Source of the DNA: Somniosus microcephalus
Lineage: Eukaryota
Assembly: GCA_052327205.1 (NCBI GenBank)
Contig: CM126207.1
Location: forward strand, 183,272,001 to 183,336,000
Direction of reading: 5' to 3'
DNA: 64,000 bases
A program made the position numbers and the translations under genes. Below are positions 30,751 to 39,100 of the stretch, one piece after another. Below the pieces are notes generated by a model. That model searched no databases. It was not told where the DNA came from and saw only the letters and a list, made by a program, of their open reading frames with translations. Positions within the stretch are counted from its first letter, which is position 1. Each line of letters starts with the position of its first letter.

Positions 30751-31748
30751 AGAGACAGCACGTAGTGGAGACCACCTGGTATAGAAACTGCCTGTTATAA
30801 ACCCCCAATATAGAGATCGTCCAGTAAAGAGTTCGTCTGGTATATAGACCAATCGGTATAGAGATCACCTAGTATAGAGACCAGCCAGTATAGAGACCAC
30901 CCAGTGTGGTGACCACCCGGTATAGTCCACGCTTTGAGTAGAGACAGCCCGGTATCGAGACTGTCCAGTGTAGAAACTGTCCAGAATAGAGACCGCCCAG
31001 TATAGAGACCATACGTTATAGAGTCCTCCTGGTATAGTGTCCTCCCAGTATACAGTCGTCCCAGTATAGAATCCTCCCAGAATGGAGTCCTCCCGGTATG
31101 GAGTCCTCCCGGTATGGAGTCCTCCCGTTATGGAGTCCTCCCGGTATAGGGACCGCCCGGTATAGGGACCGCCCGGTGTAGAGACTGTCTGGTATAGAGA
31201 CCACCAATAAACAGCCCGGAGTGGAGACCGTCTGGCGTGGAGACCGCCCGGCGTGGAGACCGCCCAGCGTGGTGACCGCATGATATGGAGACCGTCCGGT
31301 ATAGAGACCGCCTGGTATGGAGACCGCTTTGTATAGAGACCGCCCGGTTTGGAGACCGCCCAGCGTGGAGACCGCCCGGCATAGAGAGCGTCCGGTATAG
31401 AGACCGCCCGGTAAAGGGACCGCCCAGTTTAGAGACCGCACGGTATAAGCATTGCCCGATATAGAGAATGCCCAATATAGAAACCACGTGGTATAGAGAC
31501 AGTCTGGTATAGAGAGCTCCTGGTATAGTGACCGTCCGGTATAGTGTCTGCCCAGTGCAGAGACTGCCTGGTATACAGTATGCCTGGTATAAAGGCCACC
31601 CGGTATAGAGACCAATCAGCGTGGAGACCGCCCGATTTAAAGGCAGCCCAGTATAGAGACCGCCCGTTATAGAGACTGCCCGGTATAGAGGCCGTCAGGT
31701 ATAGTGACTGCCCAGTGCAGAGACTGCCCGGTATACGGAATGCCCAGT
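30748..31748. repeat. 16-bp satellite array, segment 2
   Basis: Same monomer, including a GGAGTCCTCCCGGTAT variant run at ~31020-31140. Confidence 0.97.
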
Positions 31749-31978
31749 TGAAATAAAGAATAGATTTGCCTTTCTAATCTTGGCTTTATTAACTTTAAAA
31801 TCCTGTAGCACATCTTTCCACACCCAGTCCCAACCAAAGCTGGAAAGAACTGAATTTAAGATGGCCACCACAAATCACATGACATCAACTACCAATGAGA
31901 TTACAGCATATATCCCAAGGCAGGAAGCAAACAACCAATCACAATACTTCTTACTAAACATAAAGAATAATCACCACA
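31749..31978 (-). repeat. 3' LTR of element 2
   Basis: Matches 35927-36156 except at 2 positions. Minus-strand AATAAA at 31785-31790. Confidence 0.96.
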
Positions 31979-31993
31979 TTCACCCCTCCTTTT
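31979..31993 (-). other. Polypurine tract of element 2
   Basis: Minus strand reads AAAAGGAGGGGTGAA directly before the TG of the 3' LTR. Confidence 0.88.
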
Positions 31994-32200: not shown

Positions 32201-35200
32201 TTAAAAGTCCATTTTCAATCGGTCGACCGGATATCTTGTTCGTGTCGACCTTCTTAACCTTGGTGAAATTCCTTGCCCTCCCACACCAGGAGACACAGAA
32301 GTATCTTCTGCAGGAAGGCTATCCATATCCCGATTTTCAACGGTTTCCGGATTAGAAATCCCATCAGAAGGTAAACTGGGACGGTCATAAACACCCATCA
32401 AGGGCTGACTAATAGAAGTATAATTATCTGCAATCGGATTGGAAATATTCGTAGTATCTGTAACAGCATCCACATTATCTGAATCATGACTATTGTTAAT
32501 ATCCTCAGAAGAGGGCTGGCCACCACAAGGAGCCAAGTCTTTAATTGAAACGGTACTTTCTTTCCCATCTTGGAATCGAATATGAGCATATTGGGAATTT
32601 GCCTCCAACAGCTCCACCTCCTCCACTAAAGGATCATATTTTGACAATCTAACATGGCGTCAAAGCAGCACAGGTCCCTGCATAGTAAGCCATGAAGGTA
32701 CCGAATATCCCGTAGTAGATCTCCGCGGATAGTTAAAGAGCCTTTCATGGGGGGTCACATTAGTAGCCGTTGAAAGCAATGATCTAATGGAATGCAGGGC
32801 ATCAGGCAGTACCATTTCCCACTGTGTATTCTTAAGGTTCCGGGATGTCAAAGCCAACATAACTGCCTTCCAGATCACCCCATTGTATCGTTCGCACTGT
32901 CCATTACCCTGGGGATTATACGGAGTAGTTCTACTAGTAGAAATTCCCCGACTCTGAAGGTATTCCTTCAACTGGGAAGACATAAACAAACATCCCTGAT
33001 CCGAATGGATATACGCAGGCATCCCAAAGATGACAAAAAGTTGAGTCAGACATTTGATAACTGTAGCAGCTGATACATCTGCGCAAGGAAAAGCAAAAGG
33101 GAACCTTGAAAACTCATCCACAACAGTAAATATATATCGGTTTTGAGTAGTTGAAGGAAGAGGCCCCTTAAAATCGACGCTCAAATGTTCAAAAGGAGAA
33201 GTAGCCTTTATAAGATGAGCTCGTTGAGGCTTAAAGAAATTCTGTTGTCACCGAGCACAGATAGAACATGATGAAGTCATCCGCTTGATGTCTTCAACTG
33301 AAAAGGGCAAATTCTTACTGCGTACGAAGTGTATCATCCTCATAACCCCAGGATGGCATAAGGCATTGTGAAGATTAATAAGCGTATCTCCGTGAATCAC
33401 AGAACAATAAGCCCTCGACAGTGCATCAGCAGCAACATTATCCTTCCCCGGACGATAAACTATATCAAAATGGTAACATGCCAACTCAATCCTCCACCTC
33501 ATTATTTTATCATTCTTAATCTTTCCAAAATGTTTGACTTCAAACATAAAGGACACAGATTTTTGATCAGTTACCAACGTAAAATGTCGCCCCGATAAAT
33601 AATGTCTCCATTTACGCAGTGCTTCTACTATTGCATACGCCTCTTTCTCTATTGAAGAATGCCTTTTTTCACTATTGTTCAAGGTACGTGAGAAAAAGGC
33701 CACAGGTCTTCCATTTTGGTTCAGAGTAGCCCCAATTTCAAAATCAGAAGCGTCCATCTCAATCACAAAGGGAACCTGCTCATCAATAGAATGCACAACT
33801 GCTCCAAGGATATCCTTTTTAAAATTATCAAAACATGTCCTGGCCTCCCATGATAGAGGAAATGTCGTAACCCGAATAAGAGGCCGGATCTTCTGTGAAA
33901 AATTTGCAATCCAATTAGAATAATAAGAAAACAGTCCAATAACTCGTTGCAAAGCCTTAGAATTAGTAGGACAAGGTAAATCAATCAATGGTTGCAGACG
34001 TTCTGGATCTGGTTTAATCTTGTTTCCCGAGATAATATACCCCAATAGATTTACCTCAGTGGTCGAAAAGATACACTTCTCTTTATTAAAAGTTAAGCCA
34101 ACTTTTTCCGCAGCTTGAAGGAATCTTTTTAAATTAGAATCATGCTCCACCCTTGATTTGCCACACACTGTGATGTCATCTAAGTATGAAAAGGTGTCAG
34201 AGAGAGAGTTATCACTTATAAAAGCATCCATTGCCCGTTGAAAACAAGCAACACCATTAGTAACACCAAATGGTATTCGGCAAAACTGATACAGCTTTCC
34301 GCCAGCCTCAAAGGCCGTATATGATTGATCCTTCTTAACAATAGGAATCTGATGATAAGCACTCTTTAAGTCAATAATGCTAAAAACCTTATACTGAGAT
34401 ACTTTGTTGATAAGCTCATCAATCTTAGGCAAGGGGTACGCATCTAATTGAGTATACCTATTAATAGTTTGGGAATAGTCTATCACCATTCGTTTCTTAT
34501 GTCTCTCATTAGTCGTGACAACTACCTGTGCTCGCCAAGGCGAACAATTAGGTTCAATGATTCCTTCCAATAAGAGACGTTGAACTTCAGAATTAATAAA
34601 TTCTCTATCCTGACTGCTATACCTTCTTGACTTGGTCGCAATTGGCTTACAATCCGGCATCAAATTGGAAAAAAGTGATAATGGAGAAATGGATAAAGAG
34701 GTTAATCCACAAATAGATAAAGGTGGCTTAGTCCCTCCAAATGAAAAACTGAGAGACTCGTGTAACTGAAGCACATCATGACCAATCAAAATATCCACAC
34801 AGAGATTAGGCAAAACAGATAGGTGTGTATCAGTATACGTATTACCTAGAAGAATCAATTTCACAAGGCAACAACCAGCTACTTGTGAAGTGAGGGTCGT
34901 CTGAGCCATACACACCTGATAGGAAACAGGCAAAATTTTCAAATGCTTCTCCTTTGCAAACTGAAGACTTATAAAACTCTCGGTACTGCCCGTATCTATA
35001 AGGGCCTTCACTTCCAACCCATTAACTTGGGCCGTAACTATAGCTTTGTTTAGGCCATGAGCAAATGCAGCAGAAATTGATGCAATAAACGCCCTATCTA
35101 AAGGCTGAATAGTCACAGAGGAGGTAATTGAACCTAATGATTTACACACACGTGCGTAATGACCTCTCTTTCCGCATTTACTACACACAGCCTCCCGAGC

Positions 35201-35905
35201 AGGACACTTCAGACGAGGGTGCCGGACGTTCCCACAAAAATTACACTTCTGAATCCTAGAGGCAACAGCCGCCAAAGTAGAAACTGTTTCAGAATCTAGT
35301 AAACCACTCCTATTAAGTCCACATAATTCCTTTTCATCCGGAACTGCCGAAACCACAGTCGCAGGCCGATTAAAAAGAGCATAAGAATCCGAACTTCTCT
35401 GAGCCACATCCAATGTAGAAGCTTGCTCAAAAGCACTCTTAAGATCCAAAGTCTTATTTTCTAACAACCGCTGACGAATTGATCTAGACAGTAATCCACT
35501 AATAAAAGCATCCCATACCGATTCTTCCTTATATTCTTCAGCCGTCACGGCCTTATAATTACAGTTAACATTAAGGCACTGAAGTGCTTGTAAATAAGTA
35601 TCCAAAGATTCTCCCACCTGCTGCCTACAGGCAGATAGAAGGTGACGTGCAAATACCTCATTCTTTGGTTTAACAAAAATCTTTTCCAATGTAGAAATAG
35701 CCACTTCGTAAGTTTTACAGTCCAAAATATACTTATACACATCTGGAGCAATGTAGTTGATCAGCATATTCAGCTTATTTAGAGACTCTTGATCCAACAC
35801 GCCCAAAAAGTTTTTAAATATACAATACCAGTGTTTCCATTTATCATCCACTCCAGCAGAATTAGGGTCAGCATTGAATCGTTCTGGTTGAAGATATCGC
35901 TCCAT
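32201..35905 (-). pseudogene. gag-pol polyprotein (~1234 codons) with two in-frame TGA stops (33248-33250, 32660-32662)
   Basis: ORFs 33248..35905, 32660..33184 and 32201..32647 share one frame. Motifs: CCHC x2 (CNFCGNVRHPRLKC, CSKCGKRGHYARVC), protease LIDTGS, RT DLKSAYHQI and YLDD, RNase H DASDFEIGA, integrase HNALCHPG...CSIC and DDE (VDFKGP, HSDQG, GQCER). No env gene or chromodomain is visible. Confidence 0.93.
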
Positions 35906-35912
35906 TCTGACA

Positions 35913-35925
35913 TAAAGTTAATAAA
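35913..35925 (-). other. Non-tRNA primer-binding site complementary to the element's own LTR (putative self-priming site)
   Basis: The minus strand after the 5' LTR reads A-TTTATTAACTTTA with no TGG. This is the exact complement of minus-strand TAAAGTTAATAAA at 35963-35975 inside the LTR. Confidence 0.7.
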
Positions 35926-35926
35926 T

Positions 35927-36156
35927 TGAAATAAAGAATAGATTTGCCTTTCTAATCTCGGCTTTATTAACTTTAAAATCCTGTAGCACATCTTTCCACA
36001 CCCAGTCCCAACCAAAGCTGGAAAGAACTGAATTTAAGATGGCCACCACAAATCACATGACATCAACTACCAATGAGATTACAGCATATATCCCAAGGCA
36101 GGAAACAAACAACCAATCACAATACTTCTTACTAAACATAAAGAATAATCACCACA
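35927..36156 (-). repeat. 5' LTR of element 2
   Basis: 230 bp, reading TGTGGTGATT...CTTTATTTCA on the minus strand; 228/230 identical to the 3' LTR. Confidence 0.96.
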
Positions 36157-39100
36157 CCGGTATAGAGACTGCTCGGTGTGGAGACCGCCCGGTATAGAGA
36201 CCAACCATTATAAAGACTGCCCGGTATAGAGACCACCCATTATAGAGACCATCAGGTATAGTGACTGCCCAGTGCAGAGACTGCCCAGTATACAGAATGC
36301 CCGGTATAGAGACTGCTCAGTGTGGAGACCGCCCAATATAGAGACCGCCCGGTATAAAGACTGCCCGGTATAGATACCGTCCTGTATAGAAACTGCCTGG
36401 TGTGGAGACCGTCCGGTATAGAGACCACCCTGTATAGAGACTGCCTGGTATAGAGACCATTCTGTATAGAGAGAGCCCGGTATAGGGACCGCCCGGTATA
36501 GACACCACTCATTATAGAGACTGCCTGGTATAGAGATTGCCCAGTATAGAGACAGCACGTAGTGGAGACTGCCCGTTATAGAAACTGCCTGTTATAAACC
36601 CCCGATATAGAGACCGCCCAGTAAAGAGTTCATCTGGTATATAGACCAATCGGTATAGAGACCACCTGGTATAGAGACCATCCAGTATAGAGACCGCCCA
36701 GTGTGGTGACCACCCGGTATAGGCCACACTTTGAGTAGAGACAGCCCGGTATCGAGACTGTCCAGTGTAGAAACAGTCCAGAATAGAGACCACCCAGTAT
36801 AGAGGCCATACGTTATAGAGTCCTCCCGGTAAAGTGTCCTCCCAGTATACAGTCATCCCAGTATAGAATCCTCCCAGAATGGAGTCCTCCCGGTATGGAG
36901 CCCTCCCAGTATGGAGTCCTCCCGTTATGGAGTCCTCCCGGTATAGGGACTGCCCGGTATAGGGACCGCCCGGTGTAGAGACCGTCTGGAATAGAGACCA
37001 CCAATAAACAGCCCGGAGTGGAGATCGCCTGGTGTGGAGACCGCCCTGCGTGGAGACCACCCGGCGTGGAGACCGCATGATATGAAGACCGTCCGGTATA
37101 GAGACCACCTGTTTTGGAGACCACTTGGTATAGAGACCGCCCGGTTTGGAGACCGCCCGGCGTGGAGACTGCCCGGCATAGAGAGCGTCCGGTATAGAGG
37201 CCGCCCGGTAAAGGGACCGCCCAGTTTAGAGACCGCCCGGTGTGGAGTCTGTCCGGTATACAGACCACCCAGTTTAGAGACCGCCCGGTGTGGAGGCCGT
37301 CCGGTATACAGACCACCCGGTTTAGAGACTGCCCGGTATAGAGATCGCCCAGAGTGGTCACCGCCCAGTATAGTGACTCTTCGGTGTTGTCAGCACCCGG
37401 TATTGAGACTGCCTGGCATAGAGACTGCCCGGTATAGAGATCGCCCACTATAGAGACCGCTCGGTATAGAGTCCATCCGGTGTGGAGACTGTCCCGTATA
37501 GAGACCGCCCGTTATAGAGACAGTCCATTATAGAGATCGCCCGGTGCAGAGACCGCCCGGTATAGCGCGTGCCCAGAATAGAGATGCCCGGTATAGAGAC
37601 CGTCTGGTGTAGAGTCCGCCTGGTATAGAGACCGCTTTGAGTAGAAACAGCCCGGTATCGAGACTGTCCAGTATAGAAACAGTCCACAATAGAGACCGCC
37701 CAGTATAGAGAACGCACGTTATAGAGTCCTCCCGGTATAGATTCCTCCCAGTATAGAGTCGTCCCAGTATAGAGTCCTCCCGGAATGGAGTCCTCCCGGT
37801 ATGGAGTCCTCCCAGTATTAAGTCCTCCCGGTGTGGAGTCCTCCCGGTATAGGGACCGCCCGGTATAGGGACTGCCCGGTATAGAGACCGTCTGGTATAG
37901 AAACCACCAATAAACAGCCCGGAGTTGAGACTGCCTGGTGTGGAGACCGCCCGGTGTGGAGACCACCCAGCGTGGAGACCGCATGATATAGAGACCACCC
38001 GGTATAGAGACCGCCCGGTATGGAGACTGCTTGGTGTAGAGACCGCCCGGTTTGGAGACCGCCTGGCGTGGAGACCGTCCGGCATAGAGAGCTTCCGGTA
38101 TAGAGACCACCCGATATAGGGACCGCCCGGTTTAGAGACCGCCTGGTGTGGAGACAGCCCGGTATACAGACCACCCGGTTTAGAGACTGCCTGGTATAGA
38201 GATTGCCCAGAGTGGTCACCGCCCGGTATAGTGACTTTTCAGTGTGCTCACCACCCGGTATTGAGACTGCCCGGCATAGAGACCGCCCGGTATAGAGATC
38301 GCCCACTATAGAGACCACTCGGTATAGAGTCCATCCGGTGTGGAGACTGTCCTGTATAGAGACCACCCGATATAGAGACAGTCCGCTATAGAGTCCATCC
38401 GGTATAGAGACCATACGTTATAGAGACCATCCAGTATAGAGACCGCCCGGTGTGGAGACGGTCCAGCATACAGACCACCCATTATAGAGAGCGCATGGTA
38501 TAGGGACCGCCCAGTATAGGGACCACCCAGTAAATGACCAGCCATTAAACAGATCACCTGGTATAGGGACTGCCCGGTATTGAGACCTCCCGGTATAGAG
38601 AGCGCCCAGTATAGAGACCGCCCGGTATAGAGAATACCTGGTGTGGTGACCACCTGGTATAGCGACCACCCGGTATAAAGACGGCCTGGTATAGAAACCG
38701 CCTTGTATAGAGATAGTCCGGTATAGTGACTGCATGGTTCACAGGCTGCTTGGTATACACAATGCCCAGTATAAAGCCCACACGGTATAGAGGCCGCTCG
38801 GTGTGGAGTCCGCTCATTGTGGGGACCGCCCGGTATAAAGACCACCTGGTATAGAGACCGTCCAGTATAGAAACCGCCCGGTGTGGAGATGTCCGGTAAA
38901 GGGACCACCCAGTATATAGACTGCCTGGGATAGAGACCAGCCAGTTTATAGGCAGCCCAGTATGGGGACCGGATCCCGGTATAGACACCACTCATTATAG
39001 AGACTACCCAGCATAGAGATTGCCCAGTATAGAGACAGCCTGTTGTGGAGACAGCCTGGTATAGAGACAGCTCAGTATGGAGACCGTCCGGTGTGGTTAC

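Follow-up and report, generated by a model that had tools for sequence, protein, structure and literature searches.

A non-chromoviral Gypsy lineage of animals whose primer-binding position pairs with its own LTR and which is probably self-primed

To our knowledge, Tf1 is the one element for which self-priming of reverse transcription has been demonstrated, and most other descriptions of it concern the chromovirus relatives of Tf1. In the accessible portions of the literature, the Tf1 primer is given as the first 11 bases of its transcript, freed by RNase H (PMC7175516), Tf1 is reported to require a three-duplex structure (bioRxiv 10.1101/2022.12.06.519325), and the copied primer-site tail is found to be retained on about half of the cDNA (PMC11042837). 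The lineage described here resembles Tf1 and Tf2 of Schizosaccharomyces pombe, Tj1 of S. japonicus and the Tf1/sushi group, as far as the available parts of four sources portray them (PMC7175516, PMC4600332, PMC11042837, bioRxiv 10.1101/2022.12.06.519325), in having no tRNA site and a primer position complementary to its own LTR; it also shares with that group an 11-nt core, a copied primer-site tail, and tandems with one common LTR. It differs in having neither a chromodomain nor a Tf2-type SH3, in forming a separate clade, in lacking the downstream 'pretzel' duplex, in a predicted primer whose last bases are the poly(A) hexamer, at a distance of only 36 nt from the LTR end, and in an RCC..GGY stem at the predicted cut. 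Self-priming has likewise been predicted from sequence for Tcn1 (Gypsy) and TAR (Copia), but both are plant elements, Tcn1 being a Tf1/sushi member; TAR, as presented in the part of the source available, indicates that the mechanism can arise outside chromoviruses (PMC6317226). The metazoan non-chromoviral Gypsy clades (Mag A/B/C, CsRN1, Saci2/lennie and MolGy) resemble our lineage in their compact single frame and animal hosts.

The element under study lies in a 64,000-nucleotide stretch of Somniosus microcephalus DNA, which as a whole is referred to as the window. Its features are as follows.

Whole element, minus strand: 4,408-bp Gypsy element with 230-bp LTRs and a 5-bp TSD, inside a 16-nt satellite
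36157..36161, minus strand: 5' copy of the TSD; the 3' copy is at 31744-31748, with one mismatch (ACCGG/ACTGG)
35927..36156, minus strand: 5' LTR, 230 bp, TG..CA, paired with 31749-31978, 2 differences
36055..36090, minus strand: candidate rival start site, read from sequence: a TATA-like motif at 36090 and an Inr-like motif at 36060, which lie 83-115 nt before the arm
35963..35975, minus strand: arm within the LTR that pairs with the primer site; most copies pair over its 11-nt core, 35973-35963, the predicted self-primer
35968-35963, minus strand: poly(A) hexamer AATAAA at the arm end, read from sequence
35946..35962, minus strand: RCC(T)..(A)GGY, a small conserved stem that immediately follows the predicted cut on its 3' side
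35945..35946, minus strand: possible, weak poly(A) cleavage site (CA, 18 nt past the hexamer)
35926, minus strand: spacer, one A between the LTR CA and the first paired base
35913..35925, minus strand: primer-binding position without TGG; its 11-nt core is 35925-35915
32201..35905, minus strand: gag-pro-RT-RNaseH-IN in a single frame, with two CCHC knuckles and no chromodomain
31979..31993, minus strand: polypurine tract, read from sequence
31749..31978, minus strand: 3' LTR, 2 differences from the 5' LTR

The element carries the features of Ty3/Gypsy membership (TG..CA LTRs, polypurine tract, TSD and the order gag-PR-RT-RH-IN), and its top PDB match is Ty3 Gag-Pol. The frame of the window copy is interrupted by two in-frame stops in the integrase (near 33249 and 32661), and a stop-free frame of 1,238 codons is present in three of the further family copies. 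Both LTRs were found in 10 of the 11 further copies fetched, 9 of these having 0-2 LTR differences, and the TSD of the family is 5 bp (perfect in 8/10 copies, with one mismatch in 2/10); the family is young. The lineage is abundant in the host genome, where one gag query returned 169,137 first-look candidates, a figure that is not a copy number. The absence of a chromodomain, reported in the first-pass annotation of this DNA, also holds beyond the window: none was detected in the window integrase, in 7 relatives or in the precomputed domains of 120 homologues. Nor was SH3_Tf2-1 found in any of these, whereas both Chromo and SH3_Tf2-1 were recovered in the control locus L121.

Downstream of the LTR CA, the transcript strand reads A (35926) and then TTTATTAACTTTA (35925-35913), with 7 further nt before the gag ATG (35905), 21 nt in total, and TTTATTAACTTTA is the exact reverse complement of LTR 35975-35963. 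All letters and coordinates given by the first-pass annotation are correct, and its description of a leader without TGG and with 21 nt between LTR and gag ATG is right for the window. The short leader is not a trait of the lineage, however, as the primer site and the ATG are 98-102 nt apart in a second family of the same genome. Pairing of this extent is not expected by chance: at least 12 pairs arose in 0/3000 dinucleotide shuffles of the LTR and 11 pairs in 1/3000, while the fold has z = -3.14, with equal stability in 0/200 shuffles. The hexamer AATAAA at the arm end is a feature additional to the first-pass description.

That description had also presented a perfect 13-nt complementarity, which is exact in the window but is not the family norm. 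Among the 30 copies closest to the window, TGG is absent in 30/30, so the TGG site in other copies that the annotation had named as a refuting result was not encountered, and all 13 pairs are present in 28/30. This last count arises because the copies were chosen by their likeness to the window and are biased towards a derived subclade with a changed arm, in which the window sits (support 99, gag copy tree). Across the genome, pairs 1-9 are intact in 852 copies, 750 of which have T at arm position 12; T is kept opposite it in 95 of the first 100 listed of these 750 copies. With a T-T mismatch at pair 12 in most copies, the usual perfect duplex is 11 bp long, and about 750 of 850 copies pair over 11 bp only.

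The lineage extends far beyond this genome. Gag-protease homologues 39-52% identical to the window's occur in cnidarians, crustaceans, a fluke, an aphid and a rotifer, and RT homologues in a nematode and a cockroach; ESM Atlas matches are confined to arthropod-rich gag clusters, and the 39 pattern matches of an IMG/VR scan include no relative. In a metagenome scan, 78 loci were kept, of which 66 have a gag start and the 12 without one were dropped. Together with the window, the 66 loci form 32 families after removal of L075 and L068 (duplicates of the L055 and L086 families), and each family entered the between-family pairing counts with its best member. The gag-protease of related families is 32-55% identical to that of the window.

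Co-variation of the two arms among relatives, which the first-pass annotation had named as a check, is evident in 26/31 families, or 27/32 with the window, where 12-18 bases pair. The paired families have 26 distinct primer-site 12-mers, and cognate pairing averages 14.6 bp against 4.8 for swapped arms, with at least 12 pairs in 2/702 swaps. The spacer after CA measures 1 nt in 26/27 paired families, and a TGG primer site was found in none of the 27. The LTR end, set independently from LTR pairs, coincides with that CA in 8 loci of 3 families; in 6 more it lies 1-4 nt away. The second family in the window's genome, whose gag is 55-60% identical at the DNA level, has the same arrangement with sequences of its own, and all 12 bases are paired in 20/30 of its copies.

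A 12-bp duplex is missing in 5/31 families (L042, L053, L059, L065 and L100). In the tree, L053, L059, L065 and L100 fall inside the clade and two of them adjoin paired sisters; these four may be decayed or rearranged. One of them, L100, has a TGG-starting stretch (L100:1630-1650) three bases past a CA and about 60 nt before the ATG.

Changes within families point in the same direction. Although a G-U pair was scored like a Watson-Crick pair, G-U occurs in 1/48 fully paired loci versus 11/92 pairs in the adjacent small stem, a contrast with p=6e-4 in a Fisher test over all 44 distinct pairs. The copy L060, 96-99% identical to 9 siblings, carries a transversion in the arm of each LTR, together with a matching one at its primer site; L165 shows a one-copy double transversion at pair 10, in arm and primer site; and the second family of the same genome has subfamily co-changes at pairs 8 and 12. 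In the window's family, a search for double changes at pairs 7 and 9 found none. Since the primer site changes in step with the arm both between and within families, no tRNA can follow it.

Pair 12 offers a further view of this process. Where primer-site position 12 is A, the arm has the matching T in 57/60 loci, and 13 of the 26 such loci examined are otherwise ordinary. Ten of them are scattered on the gag tree, requiring 8 changes for 10 rows (shuffled mean 9.4), and their placement in one clade is rejected (AU p=0.0001); without 4 long branches, 7 changes are needed for 9 rows, and one clade is again rejected (p=0.027). The copy tree left out L196, L133, L241, L140 and 10 loci without a normal leader, and the reduced version additionally L183, L203, L204 and L230 (the long branches). 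This scatter indicates recurrent conversion; recombination between packaged RNAs could add to it, but the site lies 20 nt from gag. An explanation of pair 12 as a simple compensatory subfamily was considered and was overturned by the reciprocal search that revealed T at arm position 12 in 750 copies.

A separate class of evidence comes from 22 loci in which an LTR and one A are followed by an inverted LTR copy starting from the 3' end of the arm, as the search pattern, which demanded a start at the last base of the arm, required. A perfect 5-bp TSD was resolved in 11/22 of these fold-back loci, and the copied base at pair 12 is that of the locus's own arm in 19/21 resolved cases. Six of them are 425-bp near-palindromes with perfect 5-bp TSDs; insertions of this kind, which have two U3 ends, are seen at L243, L247, L250, L254, L258, L260 and L187, and each seems to be a separate event. 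Five more resolve with perfect TSDs, and several return into the element after 29-72 nt. We infer that the fold-back loci derive from plus-strand strong-stop DNA whose copied primer tail folded back on the arm or primed on a second RNA. Fold-back by itself names no primer; in combination with co-variation, the one source left is the arm of the element itself.

We therefore conclude that the element has no tRNA site, that its primer position pairs with its own LTR, and that reverse transcription is probably primed by about 11 nt of its own RNA ending in the poly(A) hexamer. In the proposed sequence of events, the transcript would start at or near 35973, and its first 11 nt would fold onto the site one base past the LTR. 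The RNase H of the element, a domain that is present in the window copy, would then, if it acts as in Tf1, cut just after AAUAAA, next to the small conserved stem, and RT would extend the new 3' end for 37 nt before jumping to the 3' R. Plus-strand synthesis would later copy the primer, so that the sequence of the LTR arm overwrites that of the primer site; such overwriting would account for the strict Watson-Crick co-variation. Occasional fold-back of the copied tail on the arm, with extension through U3, would yield the inverted-LTR insertions.

Other explanations differ in which RNA serves as primer or in what the duplex is for. Self-priming might involve a longer RNA, or the arm of the 3' LTR (if the genome end circularises onto the primer site, or through a second packaged RNA), again with a cut after AAUAAA. 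The arm is present in both LTRs, a TATA/Inr-like pair lies upstream of it, and the inverted copy continues past U3 into internal sequence in 3/22 fold-back loci, one of which, L265 (G000:C5:146886232-146890595), has an LTR followed, in inverted orientation, by U3, the polypurine tract and the entire internal region as far as the primer site, with a TSD that is not clean. A long primer, however, would be copied beyond pair 11 in every cycle, whereas about 95% of 750 copies keep the pair-12 mismatch; the run-on copies number 3 against more than 850 ordinary ones and are also explicable by strong-stop tail priming on a second RNA, so we regard this variant as rather unlikely.

We give considerably less weight to the idea that the duplex mainly hides the poly(A) signal of the 5' LTR from premature polyadenylation, with priming left to some host RNA. 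AATAAA or ATTAAA ends the arm in 19/27 families and the partner exists only at the 5' end, as this idea would predict; but the duplex is kept without a canonical hexamer in 8/27 families, it begins exactly at the defined LTR end, a helix with a structural role only would be expected to tolerate G-U, like the stem beside it, and 26 different primer sites cannot share one host RNA. Occlusion of the poly(A) signal may nevertheless be a second use of the duplex. The least credible alternative, which we consider very improbable, is that the primer is a tRNA fragment or an internal region of a tRNA, the pairing being coincidental: half-tRNA priming is known in some Copia lineages, according to the available part of one source (PMC6317226), but the primer site changes with the LTR arm between and within families. 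No tRNA gene was found within the 64-kb window. In three families (L050, L052 and L081) the arm has no canonical hexamer and a separate AATAAA or AATAAG lies in the loop, which indicates that primer and poly(A) signal can be uncoupled.

If the element primes on its own RNA, the length of that primer can be approached from the copies themselves. The self-priming proposed in the first-pass annotation is supported by co-variation, compensatory changes and fold-back, although a primer of about 11 nt is more likely than the 13 nt it had implied. Because the pair-12 mismatch stays unrepaired in most of the copies that carry it, the usual primer is 11 nt or less; co-changes reach pair 10. Other families pair to 13-16, above the swap background, so primer length varies or is longer there, and across 30 families pairing stands at 27/30 at pair 13 and declines to background at 17. 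In the same 30 families, G occupies position 10 in 26, A position 11 in 21, and a pyrimidine-A step lies at 11 or 12 in 19, while T prevails at positions 13-15. This base pattern at 10-12 after a T-run fits a putative start at pair 11-12, some primers being longer. Pair 11 carries a strict Inr match in only 4/30 families, and a TATA-like motif 30-39 nt before the arm occurs in only 2/27 and is not conserved. Two raw RNA runs (with a related species label and unclear strandedness) cover all 30 bins of the element, and no transcript start is evident in their reads; no RNA run was listed as holding the element. Reads start at 35945, the candidate poly(A) cleavage site, in 17/81 cases in run X7 only, where pile-ups of equal size occur inside the ORF.

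The architecture of the RNA sets this lineage apart from Tf1. The partner of the small stem is present in 21/22 families that start with RCC, against a shuffled mean of 6.8, with a value as high in 0/2000 shuffles. By contrast, a duplex between R-U5 and the region 3' of the primer site is no better than swaps in 27 families (mean rank 0.51, 1/27 above), although it is strong in 2/2 sushi-like controls (-25 to -30 kcal/mol); this comparison covered one of the two accessory duplexes of Tf1, the downstream one. Without that duplex, recognition of the cut must differ at least in part from that in Tf1. Sushi-like chromoviruses of the same genome (L121, L123-L125) have an 11-nt self-complementary site one base past CA, as our lineage does, and the 1-nt spacer in 4/4 of these loci serves as a positive control for the geometry. 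Unlike the lineage, L121 carries Chromo, SH3_Tf2-1 and DUF4939 domains, and the arm of the sushi-like loci lies 148-160 nt from the LTR end, off the poly(A) signal. Their RT-RNase H is 32-33% identical to that of the window. Two unrelated, putatively self-priming lineages are thus found side by side in one genome, the young sushi-like families L121 and L123-L125 and the window's own.

Phylogeny supports this separation. The RT trees, which used 84 and 24 of 208 RT rows, recover the lineage as one fully supported clade on a long stem (38 of 84 rows in a quick tree; 5 of 24 rows, 100/100). The RT phylogeny that the first-pass annotation had proposed, built here without Tf1 itself, gives the lineage a clade of its own and rejects a single clade with the sushi-like loci (AU p=0.014), a value that the long stems may bias. 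The lineage, likely self-priming from its sequences, would work like Tf1 yet is no Tf1/sushi member. Its two CCHC knuckles and gag layout are features that we take to resemble Mag; the tree holds no named Mag, CsRN1, Saci2 or MolGy reference. The lack of a TGG primer site differs from the tRNA-primed clades Mag, CsRN1 and Saci2. Identity with Saci2 was rejected, by description only, on TSD length (5 bp versus 4 bp) and tRNA use, Saci2 elements being characterised by 4-bp TSDs and tRNA primers in the part of the source available, while the supplement text accessible to us contains none of the words "PBS", "tRNA" and "primer" (PMC12471100). "PBS" or "primer" was likewise absent from papers on mollusc and annelid Gypsy clades. 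A literature search on "Selfy" and "Smaug", names that we assumed might denote candidate clades, gave nothing relevant.

We consider the observation real and strongly supported, and self-priming and its separate origin likely. Our literature search, which lay outside Repbase, GyDB and subscription papers, so that a prior description is possible, found no self-priming non-chromoviral animal Gypsy lineage. More tentatively, and with belief and doubt close to balance, the findings may represent a second independent origin of self-priming in Gypsy, ranging from cnidarians to vertebrates, in which a segment of 11-12 nt acts as initiator, poly(A) signal and primer, the cut is guided by the element's own small stem in place of the Tf1 pretzel, and the genome keeps a fossil record of priming intermediates. 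If this were true, tRNA priming would have been lost, or self-priming kept, more than once, and such elements would presumably be beyond silencing by 3' tRNA fragments. Self-priming in a non-chromoviral animal lineage also bears on the proposal, as worded in the accessible part of its source, that hairpin priming is older than tRNA priming (PMC3601003). Primer length and cut site can be tested on genomes alone, by means of the pair-12 mismatch and the fold-back insertions.

Several observations concern the genomic setting of the element. Outside it, the window holds a long 16-nt satellite with many spurious open frames (approximately 24000-45000), into which the element has inserted. Elsewhere in the genome, a tandem array of the window's element (G000:C11:99243498-99277497, L126-L129) comprises 8 internal units with single shared LTRs between them, at a spacing of 4,178 bp and with a 345-bp insertion in the last unit; sushi-like elements of the same genome show comparable spacing, of 4,643 bp. 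Tandems of this type in Tf1 arise via an integrase-independent route, according to the part of the source available (PMC11042837). Finally, deep contig joints between approximately 32293 and 35122 in runs X1 and X2 (window 32275-35126) suggest an abundant, internally deleted, non-autonomous form in related species.
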